Source: Candidatus Nanohaloarchaea archaeon
GTDB taxonomy: Archaea; Nanohalarchaeota; Nanosalinia; Nanosalinales; Nanosalinaceae
Direction of reading: 5' to 3'
NCBI GenBank assembly: GCA_046497485.1
Contig: JAWOFP010000059.1
Coordinates: 1-11,738, forward strand
Length of the DNA: 11,738 nt
The first letter of the stretch is position 1, and each line of letters begins with the position of its first letter. This document shows, in pieces, positions 5,959-11,159 of the stretch. The position numbers and the translations under genes were made by a program. The notes under the pieces were generated by a model. The model was not told the origin of the DNA. It did no database searches and saw only the letters and a list, made by a program, of their open reading frames with translations.

Positions 5959-7313
5959 TGGGCTAGGCCTCCAATTCTGTCCTCAATTTTACAGGTCGAG
6001 ACAGGGATGTAATCACATATTCTGGTGTCCTGATAAATATCATTAAGGCGATCAATATAACTCGAATTAAATGATTCTCGTACACATTCATCGCCTTCTA
6101 CTGAATATGTGCCGTTCTCAAACCTGACAATCTTGTAACCTTCTTCCAAGTACTGTTCCTCTGATTTTAGATGGGTTTCAAGAGGGCCTGTAGGCGTGCC
6201 AGCATATGAAAGCATAGGCCATTCATTGGAAACAGTCTTACAGAAACCAATCTCGTCCGAGGCCTGTTCAAACCTGCCCGGACTCGCCAAAGAACCGGTA
6301 TCAGTAATTAAGAACCCGCTCCCGATCAGATAAATCCCTAAGACTATGTAGAAAATTCTCTCCGGGTTCTCCAATAAATTCAGGCCTTTAAACGCGAGAA
6401 AAGCAATAGGCAGAGACAAATCATAGAGGTACCGCCTGACCTTCACTTTTGTAGTAAGCTGCCGGGAAACAATAATCAGAGAAGTGAAGATCATCAACGC
6501 ATCCGTTAAATTAAAATCCATTTCCTTCACATACAGTAATGCAAAAGGAATTCCAAGGCCTGTCATCAAAAACAAGTCCTGAGGTTTGAAAGGAGTGGTT
6601 AGGCCTCTTTCCACAACATCTAACGTGTAGCTGTCGGCCATACTTGCGAAAGGATGTCCAAGCACAATGTAATTGAAGATCAGCCATGGAAGAACCACAA
6701 GGCCTGAAATGAAGACTGTCTTTACGATTTTCTTGATATTTTTCTGGAAAAGGATAAGCAGAACAAATAAAGCACCAGTATATCTAGTTAGGAACGCTAG
6801 TCCGAACCATGCTCCTGCTCTAGGCCTGTGAATCTCAGCCAGCATCAAAGCCAGGAAAGATAAAAAGAGGAGCTCCGTTCCTTCCAAGGCGCCGTAAAAT
6901 ACTGCGTACGGCGACATAACTAACACATATAGATACAGAGGATTCAAGTCATAGACTCTGGAAAATTTCAAACTGCTGAAAAGGAAAAACGCAGAGTTCA
7001 AGACTATGAATAAGTATTCCGAGGCCTTCATCGAGAAGATAAACTGGAAAAACCCAAGTATAACAGGAAGTAGAGGAGGTCTTTTCCACTCCATATAAAC
7101 CTGTTCATGGAAAAGATATTGGCCATTCAATGAGTATACGCTGAAATCCCACGCCCAGCCCTGAGAATGCTGATAAACCATCAGTAAAGTAACAAACGCA
7201 AAATATCCCAGCAAGATCTTTCGGCCTTTCAAATCTTCAAACCCAGGTTTCAGGCCTGACAGTTTTTTATTGAAAAATTCTTCCAGTTTTTGATCTCTCA
7301 TAGGCCTAATCAA
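5955..7313 (-). CDS. GT-C fold membrane glycosyltransferase (PMT_2/ArnT-like)
   Basis: WD after TM1, RPPLLP, TE in GTELLF, LAFLTRY, PWLIFNY..G.PF, RRYL; about 11 TM segments plus a C-terminal external domain. The start may be ATG at 7301 rather than TTG at 7313. Confidence 0.85.
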   Translation of the reverse strand: MIRPMRDQKLEEFFNKKLSGLKPGFEDLKGRKILLGYFAFVTLLMVYQHSQGWAWDFSVYSLNGQYLFHEQVYMEWKRPPLLPVILGFFQFIFSMKASEYLFIVLNSAFFLFSSLKFSRVYDLNPLYLYVLVMSPYAVFYGALEGTELLFLSFLALMLAEIHRPRAGAWFGLAFLTRYTGALFVLLILFQKNIKKIVKTVFISGLVVLPWLIFNYIVLGHPFASMADSYTLDVVERGLTTPFKPQDLFLMTGLGIPFALLYVKEMDFNLTDALMIFTSLIIVSRQLTTKVKVRRYLYDLSLPIAFLAFKGLNLLENPERIFYIVLGIYLIGSGFLITDTGSLASPGRFEQASDEIGFCKTVSNEWPMLSYAGTPTGPLETHLKSEEQYLEEGYKIVRFENGTYSVEGDECVRESFNSSYIDRLNDIYQDTRICDYIPVSTCKIEDRIGGLAQ

Positions 7314-7388
7314 TTCCCTTTAATTATTATATCATAGGAGCAGGTGCTTACAAATAAATTCAGAAAGTAGTATTCAATGTGATAAATT

Positions 7389-7652
7389 ATGGTAGAGTTT
7401 GAGACAATCGAGAAAGAAAGACGAGATTACGGAAACTTCCCAGGAGAAAAATTTGTAGAGGTAAGCCGAAACAAGGCAATTCAAGACGACGGCAGCGAAA
7501 ATTCATTTATTCAGATCGCCACGGGTTATTATCAGGACGAGGAGCCTAAGTACAAGAAACGGTTCACAGTCCCAACCGACAAAAAAGCAGTCGAACACAT
7601 CAAAGAGAAACTGCCAGAAATGTTTGAAAAAGAACAAGAATCCGAGGAGTAA
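7389..7652 (+). CDS. Small conserved-looking hypothetical protein, possibly PC4/PUR-like single-stranded nucleic-acid-binding fold
   Basis: 87 aa; beta-rich pattern FVEVSR...FIQIATGYY...KKRFTVP followed by a C-terminal helix; T-tract after the stop. The fold assignment is inference. Confidence 0.6.
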   Translation: MVEFETIEKERRDYGNFPGEKFVEVSRNKAIQDDGSENSFIQIATGYYQDEEPKYKKRFTVPTDKKAVEHIKEKLPEMFEKEQESEE

Positions 7653-8358: not shown

Positions 8359-8781
8359 TCAATAAGTCAGGTAGGCCTCAATCTCATCCTTTAACTCGTG
8401 TATATCATCCGGTAAGTCCTCTGGATCGATAAATACTATGTCTTCTATTGCGCGGCCGAAATCAGTTTCTGGATCTAGGTAACGCTTTAACTTGCTTCTC
8501 CTAGTTTTCTTGGTCAGACCTGTCTCAATCTCATAGATTAAGGCGGTTTCTGCGTCAAGCACATCAACCTTGTAGCCTTCGTGAATCTCTACTTCTGTCA
8601 AGATTTCATGGCCTTGATCGCTCAAGAACTGGAAGACTGCTGCCTTAACAAGGAAATGTTTCCATCTGTCGCCGTGTCTCTTAACTCCTCGCTGTTCTCG
8701 CCAATAACCGTTTCCACGATTTTCTGGGCTTACAGCTGATTTGATCTTCTGCCTTCTTCTCTCTATGTCTTTCTTGTTCAA
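8359..8781 (-). CDS. Small PD-(D/E)XK (restriction-endonuclease-like) nuclease with a basic N-terminal extension
   Basis: KHFLVK..(helix)..GHEILTEV..GYKVDVLD....IYEIET gives an H...E...D...ExE arrangement typical of CoiA-like/REase-fold domains. TTG start with SD GAGGT (8794-8790) 8 nt upstream. Confidence 0.65.
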   Translation of the reverse strand: MNKKDIERRRQKIKSAVSPENRGNGYWREQRGVKRHGDRWKHFLVKAAVFQFLSDQGHEILTEVEIHEGYKVDVLDAETALIYEIETGLTKKTRRSKLKRYLDPETDFGRAIEDIVFIDPEDLPDDIHELKDEIEAYLTY

Positions 8782-8803
8782 GTTAAATTACCTCAGATAA
8801 AGT

Positions 8804-8912
8804 AAAAATTAGACTCATTAGGAGCCAGGATCAACAGTCCCGGGTCTCCGAGGAGAAGTAAATCTCCTTGAGCAGGCCTTCCCGTACATCTCACAAATGC
8901 ACCGGCAGCCTA
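8804..8912 (-). ncRNA. Unassigned structured RNA (three hairpins), leader of or sRNA upstream of the nuclease gene
   Basis: 58% GC over 8821-8910 (52/90) within AT-rich flanks. Three back-to-back stems at 8873-8912, 8851-8868 and 8821-8849. Most non-Watson-Crick pairs are G-U on the minus strand. TATA box ~25 nt upstream; U-tract at the 3' end. Confidence 0.55.
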
Positions 8913-8927
8913 TAATTCAAGATTTAG

Positions 8928-9231
8928 ATGGAAGAGTTAAATAACAGGCCTGAAAATAAAAACAACCAGCTTCAATCTTAACATCTCGGCAGACAGAAAA
9001 TCAAGGCCTACTTCGACCACTTCCTGTCTGGGGAGATTATAGGGCCAGTTATCATCGTGTTCTCACTTGAAGTAGTCATAAGCGGATTATTCGCAATGTA
9101 CGTACCTCAAGCCTTTGAAACAGTTGCATGGCTGATCATCTTTCTACTTTCAGTAGCACTGATAGCGCACGGGGGGAACCACAGGAGAGACCTCAGAAGA
9201 GCTAGAGGAGAAAATAAAAAAGCTGGAATAA
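8928..9231 (+). pseudogene. Disrupted small 2-TM membrane protein gene
   Basis: ATG at 8928 is in frame with the 9057 ORF but interrupted by TAA at 8979. A shift at the G6 run (9171-9176) would give the acidic ending GTTGETSEELEEKIKKLE* (stop 9229-9231) instead of the atypical basic tail. Confidence 0.55.
8937..8944 (-). promoter_or_regulatory. TATA box for the structured RNA/nuclease transcript
   Basis: TTATTTAA on the minus strand ends 24 nt before the first paired base (8912). It also reads TTAAATAA on the plus strand. Confidence 0.5.
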
Positions 9232-9276
9232 AATATAGTTGTATGAATGTAGAAAGTCTTAGAATAGCCTTATAGA

Positions 9277-9531
9277 TTAAATTTCCTGGACTTCCCAGTT
9301 AGCAGTCTGTTCATTCTCTACAACTGCCTGGGCCTCGTACTCTCTTCCAGAGTTCTTATCGTGAACGTAGAACTGGTACTTTTTGAAGCCCTCATCCGTG
9401 ATACTGACATCTGTAACTTCGCATCTCCATCTAGAGCCGCTTCTCGACATATCAAGGCTCTTAGCCGTCTCACGACAGATAGAAGTGATATCAGTTCTTG
9501 AGGTCTTTCCGGCAAGATTGTCCTGTTCCAT
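9277..9531 (-). CDS. Hypothetical protein (84 aa)
   Basis: ATG start, acidic host-like composition, AT-rich promoter-like sequence upstream; no family recognised. Confidence 0.7.
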   Translation of the reverse strand: MEQDNLAGKTSRTDITSICRETAKSLDMSRSGSRWRCEVTDVSITDEGFKKYQFYVHDKNSGREYEAQAVVENEQTANWEVQEI

Positions 9532-10528: not shown

Positions 10529-10599
10529 GATGAGAAGTCAAGAAGAGAATGCGGCTATTTATGGCAGTTAATATGCGGGATTGCGGACAGAAAATCGAA

Positions 10600-10687
10600 A
10601 GCCCCGAGAGGGATTTGAACCCTCGACCTGCTCCTATCTTGCTTTTTGATACAAGGGAGCTGCTCTGGCCAGCTGAGCTATCGAGGC
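10600..10687 (-). tRNA. tRNA-Thr(UGU) with a 14-nt intron at 37/38; CCA not encoded
   Basis: Acceptor GCCTCGA/TCGGGGC plus U73; D arm GCTC/GAGC; anticodon stem GCTCC/GGAGC with CT-TGT-A (anticodon at 10653-10651); T arm GAGGG-TTCAAAT-CCCTC. Confidence 0.96.
10636..10649 (-). other. Archaeal BHB tRNA intron (UCAAAAAGCAAGAU)
   Basis: Exon C32-U33-U34-G35 pairs with intron CAAG as the 4-bp central helix. The 3-nt bulges are U36-A37-U and A-U-A38. A single C-G pair closes an A5 loop. Confidence 0.9.
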
Positions 10688-10715
10688 CTAGTTAAAAACC
10701 AATTTGAGACTAACA

Positions 10716-10721: not shown

Positions 10722-11159
10722 TTAGAGGTTATCCCCCATCTTATAATCCTCTGCCCAATTTATCCCTTTCTTTTGTCCGTTTCCAGGAGGCTCTATTCTA
10801 AGCTTCATTTCGCTATTAGAAGCATCTTCAATCGGGACACTATATAATTCTTCATTATCCGGACAATATACAACAAATTTGTCTATCTCGCCATCGTACC
10901 CATTACCAGATGTTTCAGAGTAATTAGATGTTGTGCTTACTGTGTTGAAAACTACAACACCATTTTTTAGAGAGCCTGTTTTACATTGAATTTTTTGTAG
11001 CTTATCTCCATTATCTAGAATTAAATCATAACGTGTATTTTCTCCAAAAGGCAAAGAAACATTTAACCCCTTCTTCATCAGCTCAGAAATGATAACTGCC
11101 TCCGAAATCTCACCCTTACGCTTGGGATTTAGGGTCTTCATAGGTTTATACATCGACAT
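10722..11159 (-). CDS. Group I intron-associated type PD-(D/E)XK endonuclease (PDDEXK_5, I-Ssp6803I-like), free-standing
   Basis: KGEISEA....L...G..VSLPFGENTRYDLI......KIQCKTG...Y...ID.F.VY.P......VP motif set. The most likely start is ATG at 11141 (MKTLNPK), 4 nt after the upstream stop. Confidence 0.88.
   Translation of the reverse strand: MSMYKPMKTLNPKRKGEISEAVIISELMKKGLNVSLPFGENTRYDLILDNGDKLQKIQCKTGSLKNGVVVFNTVSTTSNYSETSGNGYDGEIDKFVVYCPDNEELYSVPIEDASNSEMKLRIEPPGNGQKKGINWAEDYKMGDNL

Follow-up and report, generated by a model that had tools for sequence, protein, structure and literature searches.

The nucleases IscB, TnpB and Cas12f carry a RuvC or HNH domain and are accompanied by an RNA in which a variable unpaired guide lies beside a conserved scaffold. 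Type III toxin-antitoxin loci, as set out in PMC3401426, combine tandem RNA repeats, a pseudoknotted antitoxin RNA and linkage between that RNA and its toxin. Among nanohaloarchaea, which include cultivated members with transcriptomes, the orphan ncRNAs SVXNc_nc0001 and SVXNc_nc0003-0005 of Ca. Nanohalococcus are highly expressed (PMC10266531), and a conserved 266-nt intergenic RNA is mentioned in PMC7002113, two small supplementary files of which held no match to the RNA described below. Our analysis concerns an 11,738-nt stretch of DNA (contig JAWOFP010000059.1, hereafter the window) from a nanohaloarchaeal genome of 0.97 Mb. An earlier note had read part of it as a candidate system made up of a structured RNA and the small PD-(D/E)XK nuclease gene that follows. 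To judge from sequence comparison, the RNA is a new and well-supported family of small structured RNAs, and the idea that it forms a fixed system with the nuclease is not supported, although a stable RNA-plus-nuclease cassette is retained in one lineage.

On re-reading the sequence, the positions that had been assigned in the earlier note all proved correct (Table 1). H1 starts at 8912, 24 nt past the TATA-like box on the minus strand, and the stretch 8915-8800 folds on that strand at -43.8 kcal/mol (z = -3.7, a value that none of 200 shuffled sequences equalled) compared with a weaker fold on the plus strand (z = -1.8), which, together with G-U pairs that are invariant in the homologues, upholds the claim of a structured minus-strand RNA. 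The three hairpins of the earlier note are present, but H2 and H3 are not free: GCUCA (8873-8869) pairs with UGAGU (8817-8813) at pair probabilities of 0.63-0.96, and this helix, P2, is 100% paired across the 14 known copies, so that H2 and H3 are predicted to form the two arms of a three-way junction whose closing helix is abutted by H1. A switch or pseudoknot between AGAUUUA and UGAGUCU had also been suggested; the complementarity exists, but the pairing has a probability of 0.000 and costs 8.5 kcal/mol, and among the homologues native partners (mean -4.17 kcal/mol) pair no better than crossed ones (-4.15 kcal/mol; permutation p = 0.46). The H1 loop, four of the P2 pairs and portions of the H3 loop are invariant, no tandem repeats were found in 8700-9300, and the source genome holds the RNA in single copy.

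Table 1. Features of the RNA locus and its surroundings, in window coordinates.
Feature	Position	Strand	Basis or comment
TATA-like box TTATTTAA of the RNA gene	8937..8944	-	Sequence; similar box in 14/14 copies
Structured ncRNA, about 100-110 nt	8811..8912	-	Folding and conservation; probable ends
5' hairpin H1	8874..8911	-	5-bp base, asymmetric internal loop, 11-bp stem
H1 apical UUUGUGAG	8897-8890	-	Invariant except for one extra U in 2/14 copies
Three-way junction, junction strand UAA	8813..8873	-	Closed by helix P2
Helix P2	8873-8869 with 8817-8813	-	Four pairs never vary
Middle hairpin H2	8851..8868	-	Length and sequence vary, stays paired, compensatory changes
3' hairpin H3	8821..8849	-	GUUGA loop nearly conserved
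Oligo-T tract T5	8804..8808	-	Likely archaeal-type terminator
Shine-Dalgarno-like GAGGT	8790..8794	-	Complementary to 16S 3' tail of source genome; kept in 4 linked copies
140-aa protein, restriction-endonuclease-like (PD-(D/E)XK) fold	8359..8781	-	TTG start; predicted fold
Conserved 87-aa gene	7389..7652	+	One hot-spot border, convergent with the RNA
tRNA-Thr(UGU), 14-nt intron	10599..10688	-	Other hot-spot border

A DNA search recovered true copies of the RNA in nine further genomes, and a covariance model built from these ten copies, when run on 70 genomes of the phylum, recovered exactly those 10, in seven genera of one family; by a second covariance model the RNA is present in 8 of the 23 high-quality genomes of that family. 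Pattern scans added four metagenome loci (five of 37 matches score, one being a duplicate), bringing the total to 14 copies; among genome contigs, 7 of 19 matches score, all inside the nanohaloarchaeal group, with a pattern strict enough to return 7 of the 10 known genome copies. The other matches (12 of the 19 and 32 of the 37) were rejected, as the best of them reached 13.3 bits against at least 80 for true copies. Identity among the 14 copies is 58-97%, L158 and L135 being near-duplicates, and covariation, which the earlier note had named as a check, supports a conserved structure: 93% of cells are paired and 15 of 37 pairs change on both sides (n = 14, counts that ignore kinship), 0 of 500 shuffles matched the covariation score, slid structures did not come close either, and an alignment not fitted to the model still gave 13 of 37 pairs with two-sided change. 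The RNA strand has the lower folding energy in 14/14 copies and the lower z in 12/14. In sequence and predicted fold the RNA is thus conserved across seven genera. Model scores are all-or-nothing (at least 74 bits or at most 17), suggesting that the absences are real; the closed genomes G005, G010, G014 and G024, together with G004, gave no copy, a filter-free search of their syntenic 11-kb stretches gave none either, and 18 short and nine long syntenic stretches searched in the same way held no diverged copy at the usual locus (best 11.7 bits). Absence calls rest partly on incomplete genomes, and the searches score 52-150 candidates per genome. Two exact patterns returned no viral copy, and phage records gave merely a 27-nt chance match to the RNA and no match to the protein.

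By a lenient pattern, 14/14 copies have a TATA-like box at a distance of 24-30 nt from the first helix, on its upstream side, and a T run follows just after the last helix (at least four T in 12 copies, three T in two); one terminator-like site was found in the window against 0.8 expected. Archaeal RNAs that are transcribed independently have this anatomy of a TATA box and an oligo-T end, and the RNA is probably transcribed separately, on the minus strand, from its own TATA to its own U-tract. The AUG in the 3' strand starts reading frames 5-66 codons long that encode no conserved product, and a micro-ORF from the invariant AUG was rejected, its frame not being conserved.

The earlier note had not been able to assign the RNA to a known family, and when Rfam models (4227 families) were run against the window and 10 copies the best E value was 0.94; known self-cleaving ribozymes and C/D and H/ACA guides were among the families that gave no match. 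The literature searched, which covers few subscription papers, yielded no description of it. Several specific identities were considered and set aside. Full-length 23S and 16S rRNAs in 4/4 closed genomes exclude a split rRNA, a canonical 5S in 5/5 genomes excludes a permuted or diverged 5S, and an SRP match in 10/10 genomes excludes a diverged SRP RNA. A stand-in for RNase P RNA was rejected because the RNA occurs in genomes with an RNase P RNA match (G021, G022, G034) and without one (G000, G018), and a Y RNA because Ro60/TROVE was found in 0/50 genomes (a control was detected in 2/14). As regards RNase P RNA itself, G000 and G018 gave no convincing match, and G021, G022 and G034 match below the family cut-off.

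The stretch from tRNA-Thr(UGU) to the 87-aa gene differs in gene content between nearly all genomes and is thus an insertion hot spot. The 87-aa gene lies at most 2.1 kb downstream of the RNA in 11 of the 14 copies (ten by motif, that of G022 by coordinates), a twelfth copy has tRNA-Thr(UGU) immediately downstream of it, and the remaining two lie elsewhere. The RNA has been gained or lost between close relatives. Its copy in G023 is 86% identical to that of G001, with a promoter common to both, compared with 60% identity between their SRP RNAs; G000 and G001 group together in the SRP tree with 100/100 support, and the proteins flanking the G023 copy (read as L119) share 31-69% identity with those of the source genome, against 55-87% for those flanking the G001 copy. 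A clade of the four nuclease-linked copies was rejected (p-AU 0.03), in a test chosen after the tree had been seen. One horizontal transfer of the RNA and its promoter between genera, without the nuclease, is likely, a 110-nt tree being weak evidence, and the RNA is probably accessory and mobile.

The hot spot is also rich in further nuclease-like genes. A PDDEXK_5 protein is encoded just upstream of tRNA-Thr (window 10722-11159), and VRR-NUC-like, Mrr-like and GIY-YIG-like ORFs lie near the RNA in L116, L125, L075 and L114 (translations, by eye). In relatives, the intron of tRNA-Thr(UGU) is absent or measures 14, 63, 84, 93, 98 or 137 nt. The 87-aa protein, 75-90% identical and present in 25 of 50 family genomes, has no Pfam match; a weak PC4-like Atlas lead (score 0.87) hints that it is possibly a single-strand nucleic-acid-binding protein. 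A second GC-rich hairpin element of roughly 36 nt, almost identical in four genera and single copy (G004:C22:37461-37481, G026:C29:6954-6974, G034:C1:150798-150818, G005:C1:706785-706805; also L135:4143), always lies in the tRNA-Thr hot spot in the RNA's orientation; it was found in 4 of 50 family genomes, is absent from the source genome and may represent a cassette, a site of recombination or a further tiny RNA. Two related intergenic elements of roughly 90 nt in G019 (L179:4864-5183 and 7215-7335) are unrelated to the RNA by model score. L119 is titled a gammaproteobacterium, but its contig carries an Orc1/Cdc6 homologue and other genes that find their best matches in the source archaeal genome, and it is probably mislabelled.

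The 140-aa protein is, by structure prediction (pLDDT 90), of restriction-endonuclease-like fold and a putative nuclease. It belongs to a family with 79 relatives at the 50% cluster level, in which H42, E63, D73 and E84 are invariant in 43/43 aligned rows and K97 is kept in at least 90%; position 86 is E rather than K, giving E-x-E in place of E-x-K. Its fold matches reach Z 6.6-8.2 (for the best, at Z 7.0-8.2, rmsd 2.7-4.8 over 85-125 aligned residues; no Foldseek E < 0.001) and include, within about 1.5 Z, RAP-type domains (Z 8.2 and 7.3), AF1548, Can2, I-Bth0305I and VRR-NUC, a RAP-type RNA-binding domain coming first (Z 8.2, rmsd 2.8, 92 aligned). FASTK proteins are reported to be RNA-binding and to have a PD-(D/E)XK-like C-terminus (PMC12687428). 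The protein shares its fold and the conserved E63, D73 and E84 with RAP domains, AF1548, I-Bth0305I and VRR-NUC, but differs from all of them as an unannotated family of its own with E-x-E and conserved K97 and H42. None of the fold matches listed is a ToxN, RuvC or HNH fold, the query had no Pfam, PHROGs or PADLOC match, and a sequence search of solved structures returned nothing significant. The basic N-terminus noticed earlier is confirmed, with 13 K/R and 5 D/E among residues 1-40; across the family the median net charge is +3, with 4 of 43 rows reaching +8, but relatives without the RNA have a basic N-terminus too. Likewise, the absence of an adjacent methyltransferase was borne out among the 12 window proteins scanned. 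The nearest Atlas clusters consist mostly of viral hypothetical proteins, and a partial homologue from Ca. Haloredivivus is 95% identical; a match to the first 26 residues in L001 was dismissed as chance. In other genera, genes of the close subfamily are found in the vicinity of tRNA-Gln, -Arg or -Ser genes; they start with ATG or GTG, and the regions upstream of them are short and unstructured.

An undescribed conserved RNA followed by a PD-(D/E)XK-like gene is thus what the window contains, as had been proposed, but the two are not a fixed pair. The nuclease gene stands behind the RNA in 4 of 14 loci, all of one lineage and with proteins 91-95% identical, and is not adjacent in the other 10; conversely, the RNA is present at 2 of 17 nuclease loci (two weak rows, L197 and L198, E > 1e-4, were dropped before this count), the upstream structure is missing from the other 15, and none was found upstream of two viral homologues of the protein. 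The upstream regions of L010, L194 and L195 fold at z about -2.4 yet do not match the model, and in this comparison the starts of L192 and L199 are misplaced. The RNA is present, with no match to the nuclease family profile, in the closed genomes G021, G022 and G034 and in G023 and G026; G018, G020 and G032 have both, at separate places, and G009, G028, G031 and G073 (79-97% complete) have the close nuclease subfamily and no RNA match. Next downstream of the 10 nuclease-less copies come a convergent gene (8), a tRNA (1) or an unrelated same-strand gene (1), which argues against any constant cis target. Within the window's lineage the cassette is kept in 4/4 copies, with a gap of 29-34 nt, the SD and the UUG, as both flanks change, and the linked proteins are under purifying selection, with 49-69 of 139 codons differing synonymously.

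The reading we favour, to which we give a probability of about 60% as a whole, is that of a stand-alone RNA gene whose product works in trans, as a scaffold or decoy for a protein, and which in one lineage has a nuclease gene as its neighbour, likely expressed by read-through; that it is a stand-alone RNA gene we consider very probable in its own right. A TATA promoter of its own would drive transcription of the RNA, which would end at its own U-tract and be bound in trans by a protein for which it serves as scaffold or decoy; the RNA behaves as accessory cargo of the tRNA-Thr(UGU) hot spot. In the one lineage the nuclease gene would be expressed at a low level by read-through past the T-tract, as suggested by a gap of 29-34 nt into which no separate TATA fits and by the SD and the UUG start (TTG at 8781, downstream of GAGGT). 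On the simplest reading of the stable cassette, the nuclease gene would have lost the promoter it once had and would now rely on read-through. That the RNA acts in trans and is recognised by a protein is suggested by the lack of a constant downstream gene, of a guide-like segment, of repeats and of a known catalytic core, and by selection holding fixed the shape, the two loops and the junction; two apical loops and the junction helix stay fixed, and the sole variable part is paired. A protein-binding scaffold is likely on anatomy and by exclusion. The comparison itself shows the conservation and covariation of the RNA, its promoter-like and terminator-like signals, its patchy occurrence in single copy and the absence of a fixed link to the nuclease; its transcription, its ends, its action in trans, protein binding and read-through we infer.

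The RNA could alternatively bind, restrain or steer the 140-aa nuclease, as a cis operon in one lineage and in trans elsewhere, and such an arrangement, unlikely in our view, would work like a type III toxin-antitoxin without being one. The 4/4 cassettes and the purifying selection on the protein speak for it, as do the top fold match to a RAP-type RNA-binding domain and the basic N-terminus, the promoter-RNA-terminator-gene order known from type III loci (PMC3401426) and co-occurrence of the close nuclease subfamily, which 5 of the 10 genomes with the RNA hold, compared with 4 of the 40 without it (p = 0.01 by genome). By genus, however, the co-occurrence is no longer significant (p = 0.35), p rises to 0.12 when all strong family members are counted, the RNA alone was apparently transferred, 5 of the 10 RNA genomes, three of them closed, lack a detectable nuclease, four genomes have the reverse, and DNA nucleases score within about 1 Z unit of the RAP match. 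Somewhat less probable still is an action on other RNA or on the translation machinery, by a loop that imitates the anticodon loop of a tRNA or forms base pairs with a target. An invariant apical loop on a long stem, tRNA-like promoter spacing and a place beside tRNA-Thr would suit it; UU-GUG-AG of the H1 loop presumably fits the 7-nt anticodon-loop pattern for His, and by inspection we take the loop to fit the UGNRA T-loop pattern as well. The extra U in 2 of 14 copies argues against strict mimicry, there is no cloverleaf, the exact loop complement is absent from the 8/8 rRNAs examined, and a wobble-allowing pattern matches several rRNA sites, none shown above chance; both loops are short and U/G-rich and therefore offer little specificity.

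Control of the downstream gene in cis, by a riboswitch, an attenuator or a self-cleaving ribozyme, is very unlikely. The RNA does sit between promoter and ORF in the window, and three-way junctions are common in RNAs of these types, but the downstream gene is not constant and 8 of 10 other copies face a convergent gene, the alternative pairing fails without covariation to support it, none of 10 copies matches Rfam and the AUG frames encode no conserved product. It would be more improbable yet that the element is a DNA feature, such as a transposon end or recombination site, or a decayed coding remnant. Its place in an insertion hot spot, its patchy distribution and its apparent mobility speak for this, but it is single copy per genome, has invariant G-U pairs, folds strand-specifically, keeps a TATA-like box and T-tract at fixed distance, and shows indels that are not in threes and no conserved frame. 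Least credible is the proposed RNA-guided nuclease with the RNA as its guide scaffold: in one lineage a small putative nuclease does adjoin a structured RNA, but there is no unpaired variable segment, the variable hairpin H2 being paired and covarying through compensatory changes, the fold ends only some 5 nt short of the T-tract, the single 140-aa domain of the protein matches neither RuvC nor HNH in Pfam (nor do 42 relatives), and the linkage is not fixed.

Little is retained in genomes below 1.2 Mb, and a structured RNA that selection maintains in seven genera, although it can be dispensed with and apparently moves together with its promoter, therefore points to an accessory function so far unrecognised in DPANN symbionts. 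With alignment, fold and gene borders defined, it is ready as a new Rfam family, and genera that include both carriers and non-carriers of the RNA offer natural pairs in which its partner can be sought. The bolder possibility, again an unlikely one, is that the three-way-junction RNA of a horizontally mobile gene binds a virus-type PD-(D/E)XK nuclease and controls it, acting in trans in several genera and from within a fused operon in one; if true, this would be a new type of RNA-nuclease module, outside type III and CRISPR/OMEGA, in a DPANN symbiont.

In comparison with the type III loci ToxIN, CptIN and TenpIN (PMC3401426), the window shares the order promoter, ncRNA, terminator, nuclease gene, and in both cases read-through would be expected to set a low protein level. 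It differs in that its RNA has neither tandem repeats nor a supported pseudoknot and ends in oligo-U, not in a hairpin terminator, in that the protein is restriction-endonuclease-like by predicted fold where ToxN is Kid/MazF-related, and in that RNA and nuclease occur apart (4/14 RNA loci and 2/17 nuclease loci linked). The type III layout seen in the earlier note therefore survives in its gene order and terminator-like T-tract and falls short in repeats, pseudoknot and linkage. The orphan ncRNAs of Ca. Nanohalococcus (SVXNc_nc0001, 0003-0005; 115-322 nt; PMC10266531) are, like our RNA, small, unassigned and lineage-restricted, but neither strand of the five ncRNAs printed in Table S3 of that paper carries the RNA's invariant motifs (by eye). 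Unlike 5S rRNA (RF00001), SRP RNA (RF01857) and RNase P RNA (RF00373), the RNA is dispensable (8 of 23 high-quality family genomes) and has no sequence or model match to them, but it resembles these archaeal RNAs in its TATA-like box about 25 nt upstream, its oligo-T end, its single copy and its three-way junction.
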